Shown piece after piece: positions 7,160-18,256 of a stretch of DNA of 18,532 nucleotides. The notes under the pieces were generated by a model that was not told the DNA's origin, did not search any database, and saw nothing but the letters and a program-made list of their open reading frames with translations. The translations under genes and the position numbers were made by a program. The stretch lies in IMG/VR virus record IMGVR_UViG_2541047891_000001; one strand, 5' to 3'. Position 1 is the stretch's first letter. Each line of letters begins with the position of its first letter. This DNA is from a virus (taxonomy: Duplodnaviria; Heunggongvirae; Uroviricota; Caudoviricetes).

Positions 7160-7435
7160 TTACTCAATAAAGATCATTGGCTTACCGTTAAAGCGTTCAT
7201 GCCGTGTGACCGTCCATTGTTGTCCGTCATAAACAACGCGATCCCCGCGCCGTGGGCGGTATCCCGAAGAAAACACCACCAGAGAGACCGCAGGTCCGGA
7301 CAGAGCATTCAGCTCTGCCAGTGTTTCTCCCGGGATCACAGTCATATCGACATCATTAATCGAGGCTGTCTTTCCCATCTTTCTGACCGTGATCGCATCC
7401 ATACGCGCTGCCAGCCGGGAAAAGGGATCAGACAT
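7160..7435 (-). CDS. Head-tail joining / head completion protein (FII-like by position)
   Basis: 91 aa ORF starting at ATG 7435-7433, between the head genes and Z. Small beta-rich protein ending RVVYDGQQWTVTRHERFNGKPMIFIE. Function assigned by synteny. Confidence 0.5.
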   Translation of the reverse strand: MSDPFSRLAARMDAITVRKMGKTASINDVDMTVIPGETLAELNALSGPAVSLVVFSSGYRPRRGDRVVYDGQQWTVTRHERFNGKPMIFIE

Positions 7436-7751
7436 TGAGTTTTACCGGCACTTCTTCTGCACTGGTTCCGGCATCTGCCCAGACAACCCCGACCAGCGGA
7501 TCAGAGCCGCTGTTAGTCAGCTGAACTTTTCCGGACTTCAGATAAACCTTCTTACCCGTTTTCATGTCATCCGTTTTCAGCTTAGGCAGCATAAACACAC
7601 CTTCGGTCATGCCGTCGCCTGTTTCACCCTGTGGAATATCGGTCAGCGCCACCGCAAAAACATCACCCACCTGCACCAGCTCTCCGCTGCTGATGGCTGC
7701 ACTGGCAACAATCGCCACCGTTTTTCCTTCTTCTACAAAATTCTTTGCCAT
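7428..7751 (-). CDS. Small head-associated structural protein (DUF2190-like; possible capsid decoration/cement protein)
   Basis: 107 aa from the ATG at 7751-7749 (GGAG 8 nt upstream). Motifs GVFMLPK and a C-terminal VGVVWADAG...VPVKLNV resemble the DUF2190 family as I recall it. Lies directly downstream of the capsid gene. Confidence 0.45.
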   Translation of the reverse strand: MAKNFVEEGKTVAIVASAAISSGELVQVGDVFAVALTDIPQGETGDGMTEGVFMLPKLKTDDMKTGKKVYLKSGKVQLTNSGSDPLVGVVWADAGTSAEEVPVKLNV

Positions 7752-7837: not shown

Positions 7838-9796
7838 TTACGCCGTACATTTCACCAGACCGCGGTGATCAACTGGCGCGACACCGGCGTCAATACGCAC
7901 TTTCGTTGTCACGCCATCCACACTGAAGCCCTCCATCTGATCAATATATGGCGTATCCACACCGTTGAGATAAGCCACTTCAATCGTATCGGAGCCTTTT
8001 GACGCAGCCAGGTAGAAGGTGGTCTGGCTGTTATCATCAAGACGAGGCTCTGCAATAACGGTCGCAAAATCTTTCACCGGGTTAATAATACCGGCGTTAA
8101 TGTCAGCCCCCTTGACACTTGAGGAGCGAATGACCTGGTTAGCAACAGACTCCATCGCCGTCGGTACCAGTACGAACGCAGGACGAATATTCAGATGACG
8201 CTCCCCCTCTTTCTGAACGCGCATCAACTGGCGGGCTTTATCCAGCGATGCCACGTCCATTGCAGCGCTCTCCAGTACGTTTGCATGTTTCGCTTTATCG
8301 AACAGACTTACATTATCTGTGGAGATTTTCGGGTTAGACGTCAGAATGGCATAAACCAGATCGGCAATAGTGGATTTCGCCGCACGGCCCAGTTTCATCG
8401 GGACATCGGTCAGCATATTCAGATCATCATTGATAATGGCCTGACGGGTGATACTGAACAGCTCGCCATAGGTCGCCAGTGCAATAGTGGCCTGTTTATC
8501 TCCGGTGGTGACGTATTTATATTCCGCCCCTTCACGCACCTGACGCAGAGCACTGAAGCCCCCCATACCCACACGATGGGCAATTTTAAAATCAGACAAC
8601 TGACCTTTCCGCGTCCATTGTTCATAGGTTTCAGGAGCATCTTCCCAGCCCTGCAGAATGGCTTTGTTCGCAACATCCAGCAGAATATTACCGAAGTCAG
8701 ACGTACTGTGGGTGAACGCCGCACCGACCATCTGCATCGGGTTATAACCGGAAACCCCAATACCCCGTTCAGTCAGTGACATACGGGCATATTCACGCAG
8801 GGTCATCCCGTTGTAGACATTATCACGTTCGGTTTTTTCAAATCCGGCACGCGCCATCAGCGCCTGGCGGATCCCGTCCCCCACAAAATTACCGTTACCA
8901 GCATAAATATGAGCCGGTGTATTTTTATTGGATGGCGTGGACTCGCGCCCCATCTCGTTCAACAGCTTTTCGCGGGCCTGCTCCAGCGAACACTCAGGAT
9001 CGGCAAGACACTGAGCCTGCAGCGTCTGATAACGCCCGCCAAACATGGCAAACAGATCATTAATACCGTTTACACGCGCTTTTTGCTCTGCCAGTACCTG
9101 CGCACGGATACTGTTTTCATCCACCACGGGTGCTGCTGCCTGCACTGGCGTCCGGGAGGCTGCAGGTTCATCATCCTGTACGCGTGGAGCACTGTTGCGT
9201 GGCGGAGTAATCATGTTTCGAATGGATTCCGGCATCTTTTTAAATTCCTCTGTACGTTTTGACTGAATACATGCCATTGCCTTAACGGCTGGCGTCACCT
9301 GATCAGCAAATCCATGTGCCAGACATTCGGCACCGGACATCCAGGTCTCATCCGCCAGCATGGCAGCAATTTCATCGGTGGTTTTCCCGGTTTTCTGTGC
9401 ATAAGCGGGTAACAGAACCGCCTCAACCTTATCGAGCAGGTCGGCATAGGTGCGCATGTCCTCCGCATCACCGCCCGTAAAGCCAAATGGTTTATGAATC
9501 ATCATGAAGGTGTTTTCCGGCATAATGACCGGGTTTCCCACCATCGCAATGACCGACGCCATTGACGCCGCCACACCGTCGACATAAACGGTAATGGACG
9601 CACCATGTGTTTTCAGCGCATTAAAAATGGCGATGCCTTCAAAGACATCGCCACCCGGTGAATTGATATGGAGATTAATGTGGGTGATATCGCCCAGTGC
9701 ATTCAGATCACTGATAAACTGCTTCGCTGTAACACCCCAGAAACCAATCTCGTCATAAATATAAATATCCGCGTCACTCTGGTGACCAGCCTGCAT
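7838..9796 (-). CDS. Prohead protease / scaffold-like / major capsid fusion protein (ClpP-like N-terminal domain, HK97-fold capsid C-terminal domain)
   Basis: N-terminal region has ClpP-type motifs (GDITHINLHINSPGGDVFEGIAIFNAL, VDGVAASMASVIAMVG, MMIHKPFG). The middle is a coiled, A/Q-rich segment. The C-terminal ~350 aa are capsid-like. Start chosen at ATG 9796-9794, 13 nt after the portal stop; the ORF-track start at 10057 would overlap the portal gene by about 250 nt. Confidence 0.75.
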   Translation of the reverse strand: MQAGHQSDADIYIYDEIGFWGVTAKQFISDLNALGDITHINLHINSPGGDVFEGIAIFNALKTHGASITVYVDGVAASMASVIAMVGNPVIMPENTFMMIHKPFGFTGGDAEDMRTYADLLDKVEAVLLPAYAQKTGKTTDEIAAMLADETWMSGAECLAHGFADQVTPAVKAMACIQSKRTEEFKKMPESIRNMITPPRNSAPRVQDDEPAASRTPVQAAAPVVDENSIRAQVLAEQKARVNGINDLFAMFGGRYQTLQAQCLADPECSLEQAREKLLNEMGRESTPSNKNTPAHIYAGNGNFVGDGIRQALMARAGFEKTERDNVYNGMTLREYARMSLTERGIGVSGYNPMQMVGAAFTHSTSDFGNILLDVANKAILQGWEDAPETYEQWTRKGQLSDFKIAHRVGMGGFSALRQVREGAEYKYVTTGDKQATIALATYGELFSITRQAIINDDLNMLTDVPMKLGRAAKSTIADLVYAILTSNPKISTDNVSLFDKAKHANVLESAAMDVASLDKARQLMRVQKEGERHLNIRPAFVLVPTAMESVANQVIRSSSVKGADINAGIINPVKDFATVIAEPRLDDNSQTTFYLAASKGSDTIEVAYLNGVDTPYIDQMEGFSVDGVTTKVRIDAGVAPVDHRGLVKCTA

Positions 9797-9809
9797 CCTG
9801 AACCAGGAA

Positions 9810-11318
9810 TTATTCTTCGGACTGGTCGTCGGTGTGCTGCGGCTCCTGTCGTTTCGTTGCGGCACTGCTGCCTCCTTTATCACTGGCCGGATCGGTATCA
9901 AATACCAGATCCAGCTTGCGGTTTTCATCAATTTCTGCCTTGCGCCGACGTTTGACATCATCCGGATTACGACCACCTGCACGTACCCAGTCTGATTCTG
10001 TCGCCGCTCCACCACGAATCTGAATTTTCCAGGCCTCAGCCTCCTTAACAGGGTCAATCCACGGCATCACCGGTCCGGAATACACCGCGGTATACAGTGA
10101 AGAACGGTCAAGATCGCGGGGTAGCCTGATAACACCGGATGCCACAGCCTGTTTCAGCCAGGCACGATACATCGGGCGGGTGACGGCACCAATAAACCAG
10201 TCCTGCAGGATCAGGTAGCCATCAGTGGATTCAACCAGCTCCTGACGCTGGGCGCTGTAAGTGCCGTTATAGTTGCGCGCTGTACTGGAAAAACTCAGAC
10301 GACTGCCCGCCGCCACGGCACGCAACTGACCATTACGAAAAGTTTCAAGGTTAGGATTGGGGCGATCCGACTTCACCATTCCGATTTCTTCGCCGGGTTT
10401 CAGATCGTCGTAAATAATGCCTGGCTGAATGGTAAGCTCGCGTTCATTCTCCTTGCTGTCATTACCATCCGTTTCATAGCTCTGTCCGTCGCCTTTGCGG
10501 ATGTACATCCCCAGAGCAGCAGCGATCCTTGCTGCAGTCAGCTCAGAATCTTCATATTCTTTCAGGGCACTGAGGCGGATCAGCACACCGGACAATAAAG
10601 ACGTCCCGCGCATCTGGTGCAGACGGCGAACAAATTTAAGATGCAGCATTCGCTCTGCATCCACTTCTTTGGTTTCCATCTGCCGTCCGGATACAGGACG
10701 ACTTTTATACACCAGATATTTTTCGGGACGCCCCCAGTCATCAACAAACACGCCCTGATTCAGCCTGTTGCTCTCATCACTGGTCATGGGAATAAAGTCT
10801 GGCTCGAGTGCCTCCAGCCAGAAATGAACACCGGCAGAAGGCGTCAGGCTGTTTATGCGCCCGGAAACCATCTGGGCAAACACCTCACCATCGCGCAGCC
10901 AGGTACGCAGCATCAGACGTTCCAGCATCGGACGGGTAAACTGCCCGGTAACTTCCGGACTGACAGACCATTCACTCCATCGGGTGCGTATCTCCGCTGC
11001 CAGATCACGGGCAATGGCCCCATTGCGTAATACCGGATGTGGCTCGACAATAATCCCGTTTTTCCCCACCACCCGTTCTTCCAGCTTGTCAAATACACCA
11101 ATGACCAGATCGTGGTTGTTATCAAGGTAACGGGCCTGCTCACGTAACGACACGGCCCCGTAGAGGCTTAACTGGTCGGCAGTTCGGTTTTCCCGCCGGG
11201 CTTTGTGTGTCCGCGTCGTTTTTACGGCCTCATAAGCCTGGATCACCGCCCGGGAACGCAGCCTTGCCGCTTTCCATCCTGGTGAAAAAACGCCAATCAC
11301 ATCATCAAGAATTGCCAT
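9810..11318 (-). CDS. Portal protein
   Basis: About 502 aa, lying between the W-like gene and the protease-capsid gene. Start ATG at 11318-11316 overlaps the W-like stop (TGATG coupling). Acidic C-terminus, typical of portals. The family is not lambda gpB by my recollection, so the call is by position, size and composition. Confidence 0.75.
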   Translation of the reverse strand: MAILDDVIGVFSPGWKAARLRSRAVIQAYEAVKTTRTHKARRENRTADQLSLYGAVSLREQARYLDNNHDLVIGVFDKLEERVVGKNGIIVEPHPVLRNGAIARDLAAEIRTRWSEWSVSPEVTGQFTRPMLERLMLRTWLRDGEVFAQMVSGRINSLTPSAGVHFWLEALEPDFIPMTSDESNRLNQGVFVDDWGRPEKYLVYKSRPVSGRQMETKEVDAERMLHLKFVRRLHQMRGTSLLSGVLIRLSALKEYEDSELTAARIAAALGMYIRKGDGQSYETDGNDSKENERELTIQPGIIYDDLKPGEEIGMVKSDRPNPNLETFRNGQLRAVAAGSRLSFSSTARNYNGTYSAQRQELVESTDGYLILQDWFIGAVTRPMYRAWLKQAVASGVIRLPRDLDRSSLYTAVYSGPVMPWIDPVKEAEAWKIQIRGGAATESDWVRAGGRNPDDVKRRRKAEIDENRKLDLVFDTDPASDKGGSSAATKRQEPQHTDDQSEE

Positions 11319-11530
11319 CAGAACCTCGCCAGCCGGTACCCGGGATGCCCCCGTCGTCGTGTAATCAGAGCCGCAAGGCGGCGCTCCCACTCCTGCCGTC
11401 CCTGCCGGATCTCAGATAAGTTTTCCATGGTCATCTGCTGACCATTAAAGGTGACGGATTTTCCGTCCAGCACCGCCATTTCAGCTTCCGTATAACGCTG
11501 AATCATGGCTTCGATATCATTCTGGTTCAT
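11318..11530 (-). CDS. gpW-like head-tail joining protein
   Basis: 70 aa from the ATG at 11530-11528 (GGAGG 6 nt upstream), overlapping the terminase stop (ATGA). The C-terminal RRRGHPGY resembles the lambda W C-terminus (RRRGPAGF) as I recall it. Position between terminase and portal. Confidence 0.65.
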   Translation of the reverse strand: MNQNDIEAMIQRYTEAEMAVLDGKSVTFNGQQMTMENLSEIRQGRQEWERRLAALITRRRGHPGYRLARF

Positions 11531-13246
11531 AACCATCCTCCGGAAGTCAGCCAGGGGTTAACATCGTCAGTTACTGTTTTCTTCCGTTTTTGTTTTTTAA
11601 CAGGCGTGGATACCGGTTCCGGTGAGGGTGACGGTTCGGTACTGTCCGGGACACACTCCAGCCAGGTTTCCCGGCTCGCCCACTCCGGTGCATCCGGCCA
11701 GCGGATCTTTTCGTATCCATGCAGAATGACCAGAGCCTCGGCATACACCATCAGGTCAAAAGCTTCGTTGGCACCGCGACCCGGCTTACTCCATTTCCCG
11801 TCACTGCTCCGCTCTTCATACGTCAGTTCGTCGTAAAACCAGCTCCCCAGCCAGTCAGGGAAATGCACATAGCCGGGACCTGGCGAGTCACGCCATAACG
11901 CGTTATTCACCCGGTCTTTCAGTGCATCCGTCTGAAGAAGCCAGAGCGGCACATCACCTGCGGCCTGCGCCCGTCGGCCCGTTCGTCCGGTGTTATCAGG
12001 GAATGTACGGGTGATCAGTTTTGCGCGCCGGATGCTGTCGCCCTTAAACAGGTAAATACGTTTACCAAGGCCATCACGACGGCAACGACGCCAGAATTTA
12101 TAGGCATTATCAGTGACCCCGTCTTCACCGCCGGAGTCCACCGCCATTGCCATCAGTCGCATTTGTTGAGAAGGATCGGAGGCCAGCGGCCAGCTTTTAT
12201 GAAAAACATCCGTCAGCAGGACATCCCAGTCTTCCGGATAGCTGGCCGGATCAATTCGCTGGCTCTCCCCGTCGCAGTCACTGCGCAATGACTGCGTGAT
12301 ATTGTAACGATCAATAATCCAGCGTTCGCCACGACTGCCATAGCCCGTTACCTGAACCACAAAACGGCGATGACGTCCCGCCTGCACATCCACTGTCGCC
12401 ACAAGGAAATTAACGCCATCCGGCACACTGCAGGAAGGAACTGGCTCTGCCCGCTGCTCAAGCAGTTCACTTTTTCGTTGCTCCATGCTGGCACGAGGAA
12501 GATAAGGCAATCCCCAGTCGGTGTTGATAACCGCCCTGAGTGTTTCTTCGCTTCCTGTCGCTTCATACTCCTGTTCTGCAGTCAGTAATTTGTAAACCAG
12601 TTGCGCCCAGGTCTGATACGCAGCAGCTGGCCCTTCCATCCAGAAACTGGCGATACGGGAGCGGCGCGGTTCACCGGAAACGTTGCCGTTACGATCAATG
12701 ACCTGACCTTCACGCAACCAGACTCCTGCACTATTGAGCTCACGCTTTTTCTCCGCAGTGATAATGCCGCTGCAGTGCGGGCAAAGTAGATACGCCGCCT
12801 CACTGGCTTTAAAGGGATCCGGTTCATTACGGTAGCCGGTCATGGCATCCATAGCTGGCTGAAAATATTCACCGCAGTGCGGACATGGCCAGTACCAGCG
12901 GCGGCGGTCACCACGATTGTAAAGGGAAAGAATACCAGTCGTCGGTGGAGCTTCATGAGGCGACTTACGTCGCCATTTGCTGTCGCAGATGTCACGTCCC
13001 GGCGAGCTCTCCACCAGAGTCATCCCGGCGGACATAAATGTGGTGGTACGTTTTGAGGCCAGGGAGAAACCATCACCCTCGCTGTCGATATTCTCCGGAA
13101 AACGGTCGTAATCGGTTAAGGCGACAAACCGGTAATCCGACGATGACATAATGTTGACCGAGGGCCAACCAATTTTAAGGAACGAGCCATCCCTGAACGT
13201 CTTATCATGGACATTATTGTCGTTACGACGTGGACTCATTCTTTTC
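11527..13246 (-). pseudogene. Terminase large subunit (gpA-like), truncated at the 5' end by the IS66-family junction; N-terminal ATPase Walker A region missing
   Basis: The 570 aa ORF aligns with the lambda gpA region from the Walker-B-like segment (VALTDYDRF) through the CPHCG zinc motif and the nuclease domain. About 130-170 N-terminal residues are absent. The reading frame runs directly into the IS terminus at 13247. Confidence 0.8.
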
Positions 13247-15003
13247 GTAAGCGGCTCGTCAGAACCGTATTGATATTTACTGAGAGCTCAGATCAACTTT
13301 CCAGGGCAACAGATCGCGTACCCGGTTTGCCGGCCAGTCCTGGATATGTTCAATGACGTAGCGCAGCCATTTTTCTGGCTCCACATTGTTCAGACGGCAT
13401 GTGCCGATCAGCGAGTACAACACCGCCGCATGTTCGCCACCGCTGTCGGAACCTGCGAACAGCCAGTTTTTCCGGCCCACGGCCACACCCCGTAAGGCGT
13501 TCTCTGCGATGTTGTTGTCGATTTCCACCCAGCCATTACTGCAGTACACGTTCAGGGCCTCCCACTGTTTCAGCAGGTATGCGAACGCTTTTGCCGTATC
13601 TGAGTGACGCGACAGTGTTTTCATCTGTTGCTGTATCCAGTCATACAGTGACTGCATCAGTGGCGCGGCTCTGGCTTTTCTTGCCGCCAGACGCTGTTCT
13701 GCTGAACAGCCCCGGACCTCTGCCTCGATGGCATACAGTTCACCGATACGCTGCAGGGCTTCCGTGGTGATGTCGGTGGGCGCTCTTGCATGCACATCGT
13801 GGATTTTTCTCCGGGCATGAGCCATACACGCGGCTTCCGTTATTCTGCCGGATTCGTATAACGCCCGGTAACCACCGTAAGCATCGGCCTGAAGCACACC
13901 GCTGTAACCGGCCAGGTGATTTTGTGGATGGATACCTTTCCGGTCCGGACTGTACGCGAACCAGACCGCCGGGGGCATCTGTGAACCGGCGTTGCGGTCA
14001 TCACGGACGTAGACCCACAGCCGGGCTGTCCGGGTTTTACCGCTGCCCGGCTCCTGGACCGGGACGGGGATATCATCGGCATGGACTTTACCGGGCATCA
14101 GCACATACTGGCGCAGGACGTCATACAGCGGCTCCAGCAGTTCAGCAACAGCACCTGTCCAGCGCCCCAGTGTGGCACGGCTCAGCTCCACTCCCTGACG
14201 ACGGTATATTTCTGACTGGCGGTATAACGGCAGATGGTCTGCATATTTCCCGGTGACAACATGGGCCAGAAGCCCCGCTCCGGCATAACTGCGTGCAATG
14301 GGTTTTGAAGGTACTGGTGCCTGCACGATATGGTCGCACCGGCAACAGGCCAGTTTCGGACGTTGTATTTCGATAACCTTAAAGGCGCTGCTGATAAGCT
14401 CCAGTTGCTCTGACACATCACATCCCAGAGAACTGAGTTCACCACCACAGGCAGGACAGCATTCCTCTTCCGGCCGGATAACCCGGGTTTCACGGGGAAG
14501 TGAGGCCGGTAACGGTTTACGGGCTGAAGACTGGCGCAGGGCGGATGGCAGTACCGGGTCATATTGCTCACCCAGCGTTTCCGCCATTTCTTCCTGAAGT
14601 GCGCTGATTCGCTCCTGTGCTTCCTGTATCTGCCGTTCGGTTTTTGCACGAAGTTTTTCTGAGCTTTTACCGAACTGCATACGTTGCAGTTTCGCAACCA
14701 GCGCCTTCAGCCGGTTGATTTCGGAAGCATAAGCCGCCACCCGCTGTGAGAGCAGGCGGTTGTATTCAGCCATCTGGCGGATGGTGTCCTGTTGCGTCTG
14801 CAACAGTGCCCGCAGGCGGGCGTTCTCATGAGCAAGTGAGGTGTCCATATCCTCACTTTACAACGGGTTATATGCGGATTCCAGCGCGTTCCGTTCGTTT
14901 CGGGTGCTTCCAGTTGATACCTTCAAGAAGCATGGATAACTGAGCCGGAGTAAGGTGCACCTTGCCGTTACGGGTGACTGGCCAGACGAAGCGGCCCCGC
15001 TCC
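13247..15003 (-). mobile_element. Truncated IS66-family insertion sequence (3' end of tnpB, complete tnpC and one terminal repeat; tnpA, most of tnpB and the other terminus are absent)
   Basis: The terminus at 13247 reads GTAAGCGGCTCGTC inward on the plus strand, consistent with IS66-family ends as I recall them. tnpC is at 13277-14848. The tnpB C-terminal motif ([32 protein letters not shown]) is encoded at about 14868-15000. The upstream boundary (about 15003) is inferred from where cold-shock homology stops. Confidence 0.75.
13277..14848 (-). CDS. tnpC: IS66-family transposase TnpC
   Basis: 523 aa with an N-terminal leucine-zipper-like coiled coil, a zinc-finger segment (CCPACGG...CCRCDH), DDE-region motifs and a CMAHARRK motif, all characteristic of IS66 TnpC. 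ATG at 14848-14846. Confidence 0.85.
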
Positions 15004-15167
15004 ATAGAGAAGGTAACCTTTTGACCTTCAAATAAGGTTCGATAATTATCATTCTGAATCGCAGAAAAATGCACAAACACATCTTTACTACCATCAACAG
15101 GAGAAATAAAGCCGAAACCTTTATCAGCGTTAAACCATTTTACTAAACCAGTCATTTTATTTGACAT
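14868..15167 (-). pseudogene. Chimeric ORF: N-terminal ~54 aa of a CspB-like cold-shock protein fused in frame to the C-terminal ~45 aa of IS66 TnpB
   Basis: [54 protein letters not shown] is a cold-shock domain with RNP motifs. It is followed by [45 protein letters not shown], a TnpB C-terminus. ATG at 15167-15165 with AAGGA upstream. Confidence 0.7.
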
Positions 15168-15842: not shown

Positions 15843-16595
15843 TTATCTCGTCACCTTCCTCAATTGCGCTTCCGCGTATGCTTCTTCCTGCCAGCACTTT
15901 GTTACCAGTTTATCAATGACGTCCGCATACCCCTTATACCACTGATAATCGGTCAGGTCTGGTACCAGCTTCTGGACATGACGTCGTGCCAGCGTGGTTG
16001 GTAAACGACTAAACCGGTTTCCATTACAACGCCCACAAATCTTATATACCGGTACGCCATGAAACCGGGTTCTTTTTTCATCCAGAACAATCCCTTTACC
16101 CTTACACCCTCTGCACGCTGTGCTGACTTCGCCCTTACCATGGCAATGCTGACATAGTTCCTTCACCCATTCTTCCTTGATTACAGATTCCCCGCGTCTG
16201 TAGTGTTTCACCACTTCGCGCAATACATTATAAAATCCCGTACCTGAACAATGCTCACAGCGAGCCTTACTTGCCGCAGACCTGGAGTAATCAGCAAAGG
16301 CAAAACTCACGAGGTAAGGAATAATCTGTAACCGGATTTCTTCACTCAATTTGTTCAATGTCGGGTTATCCAGTGCCATCGCGTAATTTAGCAGGCCTTC
16401 AATCGCAAACTGAGGGTCCTGAACACCAACTTTTGCCAGAAATAAGGCCAACCCAAGTGGTGCTTTCGACTGCACCATCCCCTGCGCTGCCATTACATCC
16501 GTAATTGTTAAACAACCGGTGCCTGTCGCTGGAGCGTCATCGCTCAATTTTGGAGATTTTGGGGAGTAATATTTTGGTAAGGCTTCAAGGTTCAT
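15843..16595 (-). CDS. Late antiterminator Q (phage 82 / Qin quuQ-type)
   Basis: About 250 aa from the ATG at 16595-16593 (GGAG 8 nt upstream). The N-terminus [20 protein letters not shown] and multiple CxxC zinc motifs ([30 protein letters not shown]) match the QuuQ/YdfT-type Q protein of E. coli Qin-like prophages as I recall it. Confidence 0.85.
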
Positions 16596-16608
16596 GCTCG
16601 TTCTCCAC

Positions 16609-17697
16609 TTACGCCAGTACGCCAATTGCCAGCGCGCTATCGATAAAACGAAATATCAGCTCCAGTTGGGAGCCATACTTCTCTTCAAATGCCACTGTAT
16701 CCGTATGCAGCTCGTTGTGATGCTTTCTGCACAAAGGCAACACAAAGAGATCATGTGCTTTTGTTCCCATTCCGCCCTGCCCGTGACCAATCAGATGATG
16801 CGGATCGTCGGCTGGCATACCGCAGCAAGCACACGGCTGTGTCTTAACCCAACGTGTGTATTTCTCCTTAACCCAGCGGCGACGTTTAGGCAGCTTCATG
16901 AAAGATTCCGGAGACTCTGGATCAACGGTGATGCTTACCACCGTCTTTTCCTGTGGTGGTTTTTGTTGCTGGTAGGCGTAAGGCAACGGTGCAAGATTTT
17001 TTGTGCGTTGTTTCAATATGCTGGTGGCGGTCTGCTCTCCCGGTACGATGTCGCTTTCGCGGTACACCGAGCAGATTTTTTCCGCTGGTAATCCCAGCGA
17101 ACGACGCGATACAGCCTCAGGTAGTGCATCCACCACCTGATTGCAGACCGCCCACCAGGATAATTCAGCCAAAGATAATTCCCGCTCCTGCGTACCGCTT
17201 ATTGCGTGACGGATGACGTCAATCACCCATGCTGTCAGATTTTGTTGAGCAAGCAGATCCAGTGATTCCGATGTCTGGTCACGCAGTTGGTTGTCGCAGT
17301 GCCAACACAACACCATTGCGCCGGTACCATAACGGTGAATGACTGTTTCAGAGTGATGGTAATCGCCATTAGGCCACTGGCAGGATGTAACATGACGTAA
17401 TAGCCAGTCAGACAATGCGCCAACGCCGCCAGCAGCACGAATCACCCGTTCGTTACTAAAAAACGGCAGCAATGTTTTGTCTTCCACCAGCGGCTGGCGA
17501 ACGGCAGGAACAACTCCGGATGGCAGATTACGCATGCTTTTTGGTTCCGGTTCCACCAGCACTCGAGGATTATGAAATATCTGTATGGATTCACGGCCCG
17601 GCTTAAGGACCACCAGCCCAAGCTCAGGCACCAGAACAGGTCTAAGTAATACCCGCACGTTACCTCCAGATCCGTTGCTGGAAAGTGCGGGACGCAC
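16609..17697 (-). CDS. DUF968 / YdfU-like protein with a C-terminal HNH-like zinc-finger motif
   Basis: The C-terminus CACCGMPADDPHHLIGHGQGG...NDLFVLPLCRKHHNELH has an HNH nuclease-like signature. Synteny (upstream of Q, downstream of rem) matches ydfU of Qin. The ORF-track start at 17697 is GTG, so the true start is uncertain; the first in-frame ATG is at 17535. Confidence 0.7.
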   Translation of the reverse strand: MRPALSSNGSGGNVRVLLRPVLVPELGLVVLKPGRESIQIFHNPRVLVEPEPKSMRNLPSGVVPAVRQPLVEDKTLLPFFSNERVIRAAGGVGALSDWLLRHVTSCQWPNGDYHHSETVIHRYGTGAMVLCWHCDNQLRDQTSESLDLLAQQNLTAWVIDVIRHAISGTQERELSLAELSWWAVCNQVVDALPEAVSRRSLGLPAEKICSVYRESDIVPGEQTATSILKQRTKNLAPLPYAYQQQKPPQEKTVVSITVDPESPESFMKLPKRRRWVKEKYTRWVKTQPCACCGMPADDPHHLIGHGQGGMGTKAHDLFVLPLCRKHHNELHTDTVAFEEKYGSQLELIFRFIDSALAIGVLA

Positions 17698-17938
17698 GTG
17701 GTGGGCGTTCGGAGTAAGGCAATCTGACTGAGATTATCCAGTGACGGTAGTCGAGGCTAAGGGCTTTCTTAACCTCGTATCCGCGCCTGCGGTAACACTG
17801 AATTATCCATTCAGCCTGCTCTTCAGTGCATGGAGGGTGTTGGAACCATTCAGACTTGAATGCGTGAGAATACCGCTCGTGCGTGCAGACAAGAACGGGC
17901 GAATTATCAGAATTGTAATATTTTACGTTGCGTGCCAT
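17660..17938 (-). CDS. Hypothetical small protein (92 aa), 3' end overlapping the DUF968 ORF
   Basis: ATG at 17938-17936 with GGAG 7 nt upstream. Cys/His-containing N-terminal half (VLVCTHERYSH...HPPCTEEQAEW). I do not recognise the family. Confidence 0.4.
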   Translation of the reverse strand: MARNVKYYNSDNSPVLVCTHERYSHAFKSEWFQHPPCTEEQAEWIIQCYRRRGYEVKKALSLDYRHWIISVRLPYSERPPRASRTFQQRIWR

Positions 17939-18004
17939 CGGTTTTCTCCGGTGGCACGGTGTTACTCAGCGGGAGTTCAGCCCCGCGCAAGATTGTAGAT
18001 GAGT

Positions 18005-18256
18005 TTATTCTTCTGCAAAAGCTGAAAAGCCTGCTTTTATTCCGATCTCTTTCAGTGCCTGTAATGAAGTGACAAACTCACCTTCGCGCAAGATAAATCC
18101 GTCCGTGACTCGAGCATCCACAAAATTAATTAACGCAGCCCCATTCTTTCGCAAACACAGAATGCGGTAATGACTAACAATGTTTCCATTTTCAACGCAC
18201 ACAGCATAGAGGCCATCTTCACAAAAAATTTTACGCAGTTCTTCGATGTTCATCAT
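18005..18256 (-). CDS. rem: Rem-like small protein (83 aa, unknown function)
   Basis: 83 aa ORF (MMNIEELRKIFCEDGLYAVCVENG...) between the DUF968 gene and hok, as for rem in the Qin prophage. The sequence match is from memory only. Confidence 0.55.
   Translation of the reverse strand: MMNIEELRKIFCEDGLYAVCVENGNIVSHYRILCLRKNGAALINFVDARVTDGFILREGEFVTSLQALKEIGIKAGFSAFAEE

Follow-up and report, generated by a model that had tools for sequence, protein, structure and literature searches.

A ClpP-like protease, scaffold-like linker and HK97-fold capsid domain in a single gene of a defective lambdoid prophage, with a conserved candidate internal translation start

Lambda-type head modules have a separate S49 protease (C), a gpE-family major capsid protein and a gpD-family decoration protein. 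The window analyzed here (the whole stretch of DNA, 18,532 nt) does not follow this plan: a single gene on the minus strand (7838..9865) encodes a ClpP-like prohead protease, a scaffold-like linker and a major capsid protein, as indicated by its open reading frame, the RefSeq CDS, the NCBIfam model NF045540 and PHROG 133. The locus raises the question of what kind of gene this is, where it starts, and whether it makes one protein or two.

The reading frame and its translation are uninterrupted from stop to stop (7838..10057). The initial annotation delimited the gene by positions 7838 and 9796, and both the strand and the start had to be revised: on the minus strand, 7838 is the end of the stop codon and 9796 belongs to an ATG in the same frame. 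The most likely start is the GTG at 9865, 23 codons upstream of this ATG, which is also the one used by RefSeq (WP_001136590.1). A Shine-Dalgarno (SD) motif, AAGGAGG (9871..9877, minus strand), lies 5 nt upstream of the GTG (9865-9863), within the 3'-terminal part of the portal gene. The pairing with the anti-SD is -11.6 kcal/mol at this position, versus -2.2 kcal/mol at ATG 9796, which has no SD motif. Moreover, the protein of Gifsy-2 has an Ile at the residue aligned with the Met of ATG 9796, which is hence not a conserved start. The gene would then comprise 675 codons and a stop (7838-7840), and its product is likely to have 675 aa (73.5 kDa) rather than 652. Lambda C is similar in this respect, since it has a GTG start with a pairing of -12.0 kcal/mol and overlaps the end of the portal gene B.

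The N-terminal part, from around residue 24 to 197 (9275..9796, minus strand), is a ClpP-family serine protease domain. It matches Pfam CLP_protease (E 4.5e-36) and the NCBIfam model for ClpP-related head maturation proteases (NF045542, 216 bits for a cutoff of 120), and a search of the PDB with the full fusion protein matched only ClpP chains. The motifs AASMAS and IHKP, which had been proposed from the sequence as a protease signature, are residues 99-104 and 123-126. They align with AASMG and IHQP of solved ClpP structures (E 4e-16), on the catalytic Ser and His, and are thus genuine. The corresponding codons are at 9563-9565 (Ser101) and 9494-9496 (His124), while Glu173, adjoined by Asp172, occupies the position of the catalytic Asp of ClpP. 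Cellular ClpP is a stand-alone subunit of about 200 aa. The fusion protein does not belong to this group: it scores 59.7 bits with the model of the ATP-dependent enzyme (TIGR00493, cutoff 308.6), and far under the cutoff with every ClpP equivalog and subfamily model.

The linker covers residues 198-324 (8894..9274, minus strand) and was delimited using an AlphaFold2 model, composition and conservation. It starts with a conserved junction, Cys199...Met211, followed by a spacer (222-249), a helical region (250-308, at 8942-9118 of the window) and a second spacer (309-324). The model was computed on a 126-sequence alignment of residues 198-675 and superseded one obtained from the single full-length sequence (pLDDT 37). 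It has an overall pLDDT of 83.4 and predicts three helices of 24, 9 and 15 residues (pLDDT 90-94) between two disordered Pro/Ala-rich spacers (below 50). This segment had been described as coiled and A/Q-rich. The enrichment is there, since A and Q make up 22-29% of the linker versus 16% of the whole protein, but the short helices do not form a long coiled coil.

The C-terminal part (from around residue 325 to 675; 7841..8893, minus strand) is an HK97-fold major capsid domain of the Mu gpT-like, Phage_capsid_4 type, encoded in the same uninterrupted frame. It matches the Pfam family with an E-value of 8e-55, and the predicted structure upholds the HK97 fold suggested by the initial annotation. 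Its relatives in the PDB could be found with a family profile but not with a single-sequence search. Together with the protease match and the NF045540 score below, this bears out the proposal that one frame encodes protease, scaffold-like linker and capsid.

How unusual is such a gene? The protein scores 986 bits with NF045540, the model of Gifsy-2-type ClpP-like prohead protease/major capsid protein fusions (cutoff 475), and residues 9-651 of the 652-aa form cover positions 2-651 of the 652 in the profile. Like the members of this family, it has a Ser/His ClpP-related protease and an HK97-fold capsid domain in one frame, in synteny with portal and cement genes. It also falls in PHROG 133, and RefSeq names the identical gene as a fusion of this type. 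The best 120 homologues were all at least 54% identical, and more distant members were retrieved with a profile built from distant members. Effantin et al. (2010, Virology 402:355) reportedly made a structural characterization of Gifsy-2 whose title mentions mixed HK97/lambda head features. The Gifsy-2 tripartite capsid gene is attributed to that study in PMC12315714, and another article describes a trimeric decoration protein at the 3-fold axes of this phage (PMC8538268). In Pseudomonas phage MD8, gp5 was described as one gene for protease, scaffold and major capsid protein (PMC8508860, 2021). Hence, the arrangement is already known, and even ordinary: it was published for Gifsy-2 in 2010 and for MD8 in 2021, it has an NCBIfam naming rule of its own, and we found the gene in 2125 of the 5426 complete E. 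coli genomes (around 40%).

Gifsy-2 (NC_010393, STM1034.3n) has the gene order of the window, with a lambda-type large terminase (TerL) and portal ahead of the fusion, and then a 107-aa cement protein and lambda-type tail genes. The two fusion proteins are 69% identical over their full length and 84% in the capsid part. They differ in the extension preceding the protease, which is shorter in the window (675 vs 696 aa as annotated), and the window comes from a defective prophage of E. coli. The cultured or inducible E. coli lambdoid phages mEp460, cdtI, Tritos, Ayreon and phi458 use what is essentially this gene, at 98-99.8% nucleotide identity, and differ only in its annotation, which is inconsistent ("protease/scaffold", "Major Capsid Protein", "Nu3" or "head-tail preconnector protease C"). 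MD8 gp5 and the LESphi2/F10 group also have ClpP-type protease, scaffold and capsid parts followed by a head decoration gene, with end-to-end identities of 55-56%, rising to 63% in the capsid part. However, they infect another host and have a longer N-terminal extension. More distant are the fusions with an S78-type protease (NF045541), such as Stenotrophomonas phage S1 gp8 and those of the Rhodobacter RcC-cluster phages. They share with the window the linker and capsid module (around 28-33% identity), the Cys...Met junction and the downstream cement gene, whereas their N-terminus is an unrelated HK97-type Peptidase_S78. Accordingly, the window protein scores 402 bits with NF045541 (cutoff 525), with a match limited to residues 197-649. 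It is thus very probable that the fusion is the head-shell gene of a lambdoid prophage of the Gifsy-2/mEp460/cdtI type, within the known family of protease/capsid fusions.

The neighborhood of the gene is consistent with this assignment, since a portal gene before the fusion and a cement gene after it are also found in Gifsy-2, LESphi2 and other relatives. Directly upstream is a lambda-family portal gene (9810..11318, minus strand; Phage_portal_2, E 1e-81, and RefSeq annotation of the identical locus), the last 56 nt of which overlap the fusion in another frame. Immediately downstream is the gene of a 107-aa head cement (decoration) protein (7428..7751, minus strand). It matches PF09956 (Phage_cement_2, E 1.5e-20) and is 60% identical to STM1034 of Gifsy-2, so the decoration function that the initial annotation had included in the polypeptide is in fact encoded by a separate gene. 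A sequence search of the PDB gave no relative of this protein. In the five relatives that we checked (LESphi2, RcKvothe, Epona, Vibrio 2.096.O and the E. coli reference locus), the small gene following the capsid gene matches PF09956 or is annotated as DUF2190, the former name of that family. Stenotrophomonas phage S1 has a small gene at this position, known by position only.

The head had also been seen as HK97-like and the tail as lambda-like, making a mosaic virion. The tail is indeed lambda-like (Z, U, V, G, T, H, M, L), and the head mixes HK97 and lambda features, but the joint is not between head and tail. TerL and portal are of the lambda family, and only the segment equivalent to C-Nu3-D-E is of another type. 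Neither is this segment a typical HK97 module. In HK97, the S78 protease (gp4) is encoded on its own, the shell protein (gp5) forms covalent chainmail crosslinks, and there is no decoration protein, whereas the window has a fused ClpP-type protease and a cement gene. In lambda, too, the gene of a decoration protein, small and trimeric, adjoins the capsid gene.

By analogy with the published work on the 69%-identical Gifsy-2 homologue, we propose that the linker, with its flexible Pro/Ala-rich spacers and its small three-helix domain, stands in for a delta/Nu3-like scaffolding domain. The precursor would form a T=7 procapsid on the lambda-type portal, from which the built-in protease would then remove itself and the scaffold part. 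The shell would expand upon DNA packaging, and trimers of the cement protein would lock the 3-fold sites, as gpD does in lambda.

Whether these steps take place in the host of this DNA is a different matter, because the prophage is defective. The 5' end of the TerL gene is truncated by an IS66 element, whose transposase lies beside it, and we found no small terminase or lysis genes between TerL and the Q antiterminator (15843-16625). A search for inverted repeats of IS66 ends gave nothing convincing. By eye, the ORF at 14868-15167 looks like a chimera between the N-terminus of a cold-shock protein and an IS66 TnpB-like tail. The truncated TerL and the missing genes make the function of the fusion in situ doubtful, and it is probably not used for making phage in this window. 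We find it rather likely that the gene, although intact, is carried along unused in a decaying Qin-type prophage and is relevant only as recombination material for incoming lambdoid phages. The chimera-like ORF fits such decay, as does the similarly scrambled Qin region of the closest relative, E24377A, and no complete E. coli genome of the collection has the arrangement of the window over 80% of its length. On the other hand, the fusion and cement genes, the portal gene and the whole set of tail genes remain intact and match the genes of viable phages exactly or almost exactly, which implies that the terminase and lysis genes were lost recently or that the module was maintained. In any case, the decay of the prophage limits where the mechanism operates and does not replace it.

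The number of products is the point at which the gene might depart from the published descriptions. Comparative analysis revealed a candidate internal translation start at 9233..9250 (minus strand), consisting of GAGGA (9246-9250) and the ATG of Met211 (9233-9235). Initiation there would yield, in the same frame, a scaffold and capsid product of 465 aa (50.7 kDa). Met211 is conserved in 124 of 126 sequences. The SD pairing upstream of it averages -6.8 kcal/mol over 81 unique contexts, which are phylogenetically related and hence not independent. This equals the value at real downstream gene starts (-6.7), whereas the figure for 1337 other in-frame ATGs is around 5 kcal/mol weaker (-1.7). The signal does not stand out when the SD scan is confined to the window, where Met211 (-6.0) is one of three in-frame ATGs at -6 or lower. 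Nor does an internal start require a strong SD on this metric: translation of the lambda scaffold Nu3 begins in frame inside C, and this start, used as a positive control, scores weakly (-2.7).

These comparisons suggest, with fair probability, that the fusion is a nested two-product gene, giving a 73.5-kDa form from GTG 9865 and a 50.7-kDa form from Met211. Most shell subunits would then start at Met211 and lack the protease, and a few full-length copies would co-assemble with them, carrying the protease inside. Such a scheme would parallel the nested genes C/Nu3 of lambda and I/Z of Mu. The initial idea of one polypeptide would thus be right regarding the continuous frame, yet may be incomplete regarding the products.

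Alternatively, the gene may have a single product, such that all of the approximately 415 shell subunits begin with their own protease and scaffold, removed by self- or trans-cleavage. We regard this as possible but somewhat unlikely. The SD-like motif and Met211 would then reflect constraints at the protein level, as a cleavage site or a tether, or else a translational pause site or what is left of a former boundary between genes. The continuous frame agrees with this reading, as do the accessible descriptions of the Gifsy-2 and MD8 genes (PMC12315714, PMC8508860), which present a single gene with a composite product and mention no internal start, although the original Gifsy-2 report may have it. 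In ClpP-type genes, 9-11 nt separate the SD from the ATG, a long and suboptimal distance. Part of the signal also comes from the amino-acid sequence itself: the pairing at Met211 is stronger than in synonymous shuffles in 73 of the 81 contexts, but the shuffles still average -4.55, owing to the conserved Glu-Glu residues. Finally, Cys199 is as conserved as Met211, which points to a constraint on the protein at this junction.

Other observations are harder to reconcile with a single product. At position -5, Glu is encoded by GAG in 29 of 29 contexts, versus 38% gene-wide, and the following codon keeps the form GA-N across changes between Glu and Asp. In distant homologues, the residues encoded over the motif vary widely, but a GGAG or GAGG core is retained at 5-9 nt; in the MD8/LESphi2/F10 group the motif is AAGGAG or CAGGAG instead of GAGGA. 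The feature is kept in two types of fusions with unrelated proteases, and a relic would have decayed at around 30% protein identity. In Epona, a relative in which the gene is split, the separate scaffold and capsid gene begins at an equivalent SD and ATG, upstream of the same helical domain.

The conserved internal start is the single point of this locus that may interest specialists of phage assembly. If true, it would hold as a general rule across the widespread family of ClpP-type and S78-type fusions, and would extend the nested-gene logic of lambda and Mu to a family with two unrelated types of protease. It would also show how a polyprotein capsid gene sets the ratio of protease to shell, and thereby solve a problem of stoichiometry, since a head has hundreds of shell subunits and needs few proteases.

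The initial annotation had called for a check that no frameshift or stop splits the protease from the capsid, and we found neither an internal stop nor a frameshift within the gene. Many complete E. coli chromosomes carry a 100% identical copy of its DNA, which their annotation treats as a single CDS, leaving no sign of a sequencing frameshift. Thus, even if databases contain entries with neighbors fused by indels (e.g., 1159-aa chimeras of portal and fusion), it is extremely improbable that an assembly error or lost stop merged separate protease and capsid genes, given these independent identical copies, the approximately 99% identity in cultured phages, the conservation of the fused state in Pseudomonas, at identities as low as 55%, and in S78-type relatives, and the existence of a dedicated curated NCBIfam model. 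The 1159-aa proteins had also led us to consider a programmed frameshift joining portal and fusion, which we rejected because the junctions differ between entries. The practical use of these results lies in annotation: in public records, the fusion goes by "Nu3", "protease C", "putative protease" or "major capsid protein", and its cement neighbor by "recombinase" or "DUF2190".

The fused architecture is an established, widespread and curated gene type, and hence it holds no novelty. The protein matches the NCBIfam family NF045540, [quoted passage not shown], from end to end with 986 bits (cutoff 475), and this name is the one used by RefSeq. The gene was found in 2125 of the 5426 complete E. 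coli genomes, and in many of these chromosomes its DNA is 100% identical. The corresponding gene is 98-99.8% identical in the cultured phages mEp460, cdtI, Tritos, Ayreon and phi458. The product of the Salmonella phage Gifsy-2 shares 69% identity over the full length with the window protein, within the same gene order. The 2010 study of Gifsy-2 reportedly described a ClpP-like protease and a central domain of ~200 residues that might act as a scaffold, as well as a T=7 shell fitted with the HK97 major capsid protein (MCP) and a decoration protein resembling lambda gpD. The sole element meriting specialist follow-up is a conserved putative internal start, presented at the end of this analysis.

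The ORF list and the translation give a single uninterrupted frame on the minus strand, from stop to stop at 7838..10057. The initial annotation had recognized a real single ORF, and its assignment of the domains is correct. Its strand and start had to be revised. Position 7838 is the end of the stop codon, and the proposed start at 9796 is an in-frame ATG (652 aa) without a ribosome-binding site, with an anti-Shine-Dalgarno (SD) pairing of -2.2 kcal/mol. The GTG at 9865, 23 codons upstream, has an AAGGAGG at 5 nt (-11.6) and is the RefSeq start in an identical chromosomal copy (675 aa, WP_001136590.1). Gifsy-2 has an Ile where the Met of ATG 9796 aligns. Given the SD strength, the RefSeq start and this Ile, we place the gene at 7838-9865(-), encoding 675 aa (73.5 kDa). 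Its first 56 nt coincide with the end of the portal gene, which is read in another frame, and its own frame stays open over the 64 codons that precede the GTG, in the portal 3' end. The layout is the same in lambda, where gene C starts at a GTG, behind a very strong SD (-12.0), before portal gene B has ended (L171, 4418). Around 12 database proteins of 1135-1159 aa join the portal to the protease-capsid protein (e.g., P0005, P0009, P0011 and P0043; overlap 9810-9865). A programmed joining was rejected because the junction positions differ among these proteins, which stem from frameshift errors or mutations that arose sporadically in the 3' end of the portal.

The N-terminal third matches Pfam CLP_protease (E 4.5e-36), scores above the cutoff of the NCBIfam model "head maturation protease, ClpP-related", and retrieves ~100 ClpP chains from PDB with phmmer (best E 4e-16). 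All the NCBIfam equivalog models of cellular ClpP are far below their cutoffs, which indicates a phage prohead protease rather than a housekeeping ClpP. The motifs AASMAS (residues 99-104) and IHKP (123-126) align with those of the ClpP catalytic Ser and His. The position of the catalytic Asp is occupied by Glu173 (codon 9347-9349), which is kept in Gifsy-2 and in the Pseudomonas phage LESphi2; the adjoining Asp172 is not conserved. The protease may therefore use a Ser-His-Glu triad or, in effect, a dyad.

The C-terminal half matches Pfam Phage_capsid_4 (E 8e-55) and Mu-like_gpT (E 4e-8). A profile built from eight diverse family members reached solved capsid proteins by sequence, i.e., 8rkc and relatives (E 1.7e-12) and 9jod (E 1e-9). 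The structure predicted for residues 198-675 from an alignment of 126 sequences has a pLDDT of 83.4 and a pTM of 0.68 (pLDDT 37 from the single sequence). When compared with PDB by Foldseek, it gave 344 matches at E<=1e-3, of which the best 50 are all HK97-fold shells, including HK97 Head II. The outcome that would have refuted the initial annotation, a C-terminal half without a capsid fold, is therefore not what these comparisons show. In the linker, the model shows a weakly ordered junction (residues 198-221), a disordered Pro/Ala-rich spacer (222-249; A+Q 29%, P 18%), three confident helices (250-273, 280-288 and 294-308; A+Q 22% vs 16% in the whole protein) and a second disordered spacer (309-324). 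Describing this linker as scaffold-like is reasonable, but calling it coiled overstates what are short helices between disordered spacers.

When the capsid part alone was used as a query, it matched 148 phage records, many annotated as protease-capsid fusions. A different N-terminal domain precedes this linker and capsid module in Stenotrophomonas phage S1 (L005:602-2584), in Rhodobacter RcC phages such as RcKvothe (L006:623-2665) and in a Vibrio phage (L007:659-2656). In Pfam, this domain is an HK97-type Peptidase_S78 in RcKvothe and has no protease match in S1 and the Vibrio phage; homologues of the S1 protein are named prohead protease/MCP fusions, corresponding to NCBIfam NF045541. Faecalibacterium phage Epona (L008:499-2635) has a separate S78 protease gene, then a 530-aa linker and capsid gene. 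An archaeal virus, Methanoculleus virus Blf4, has a 395-aa gene with the Phage_capsid_4 domain and without a protease domain (L009:1591-2778). The label of its product, "prophage Clp protease-like protein", is an annotation error, since Pfam matches solely capsid families. The different N-terminal domains indicate that two unrelated proteases were each fused to the linker-capsid module, at the boundary between protease and linker. The pattern resembles a displacement of the protease at a fixed junction.

The gene directly after the fusion (7428-7751, 107 aa) matches PF09956, "Phage cement protein" (E 1.5e-20), and is 60% identical to its Gifsy-2 neighbor. Decoration is thus encoded separately, and not within the polypeptide as initially proposed. 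The small gene after the capsid gene also matches PF09956 in LESphi2, RcKvothe and Epona, and is annotated DUF2190 in Vibrio 2.096.O and in the E. coli reference locus. In S1, the gene at this position (gp9, L005:2607-2972) is labelled "putative recombinase", possibly a legacy DUF2190 name. The next gene (7160-7435, -, 91 aa) matches PF13856, "Gifsy-2", described as "ATP-binding sugar transporter from pro-phage"; it is named "DNA breaking-rejoining protein" in RefSeq and "Head completion protein Hc1" in phage Tritos. By its position and the Tritos annotation we take the product as a putative head-completion or connector protein, and the PF13856 and RefSeq names look misleading. Tail genes Z, U, V, G, T, H, M and L are of the lambda family, and so are the portal and TerL, which has the ATPase and nuclease domains of gpA. 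The boundary of the initially proposed mosaic of HK97-like head and lambda-like tail does not separate head from tail: the stretch replaced relative to lambda is C-Nu3-D-E only.

The genes for the head shell, cement protein, portal and tail are all intact. TerL (11527-13239, -; 570 aa) is truncated in 5', its ATPase match starting at position 97 of the 247 of the profile, and directly adjoins an IS66-family transposase gene (13277-14848, -). Read by eye, the ORF at 14868-15167 (-, 99 aa) has a cold-shock-protein N-terminus followed by an IS66 TnpB-like tail; on this reading, the IS66 element would also be incomplete, and would mark the scar left by a deletion or rearrangement within a Qin-type region. 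The Q antiterminator (ydfT-like), ydfU and rem-like genes follow (15843-18256). The small terminase and lysis genes, present at this place in the intact reference locus, are absent between TerL and the Q antiterminator in the window. Hence, given the TerL truncation, the IS66 and the missing genes, the prophage is defective. None of the complete E. coli genomes in the collection shares this arrangement over 80% of its length; the closest is E24377A, with its scrambled Qin region.

Three residues of the junction are near-invariant in the 126-sequence alignment and common to the fusions with ClpP-type and S78-type proteases: Cys199 (123/126), Glu207 (106/126) and Met211 (124/126). We placed the conserved Met with a linker HMM in 160 loci with DNA and scored the anti-SD pairing upstream. 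The mean is -6.78 kcal/mol in 81 unique contexts, which are phylogenetically related and non-independent (95% at or below -4). It is -1.71 for 1337 other in-frame ATGs of the same ORFs (12%) and -6.69 for 71 real starts, those of the downstream cement gene (93%). Shuffling synonymous codons at the six upstream positions gave -4.55, and the observed pairing was stronger in 73 of the 81 contexts. Distant members keep a GGAG/GAGG core despite widely varying encoded residues. The distance of the core to the ATG is 5-9 nt in the S78-type genes, and 9-11 nt in the ClpP-type ones. In the latter, all 29 of 29 contexts use GAG for the Glu at position -5, vs 38% of the other Glu codons of the same ORFs, and the following codon keeps GA-N for Glu and Asp alike. 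Most sequences lacking the Met in the aligned column have an SD and ATG a few residues away, and in Epona the equivalent SD and ATG are the annotated start of the separate scaffold and capsid gene. In the window alone, Met211 (-6.0, with a long spacing to the SD) is among three in-frame ATGs at or below -6. The known internal start of lambda Nu3 (L171, 5132) is preceded by a weak SD, at -2.7 when scored likewise.

This is good comparative evidence, and we consider it rather probable that a nested scaffold and capsid product of 465 aa (50.7 kDa) would be made, with the full-length form as a minority carrier of the protease. Mu I/Z has the same kind of nested-gene layout. Lambda C/Nu3 also parallels the proposed one (Shaw and Murialdo 1980, as cited in PMC8508860). 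The literature searched gave no mention of an internal start in fusion genes, a point the 2010 Gifsy-2 paper may address. Cys199 (codon 9269-9271), 12 residues upstream of Met211, would occur in the full-length product only; possible roles include a cleavage site, a tether, or metal or disulfide chemistry.
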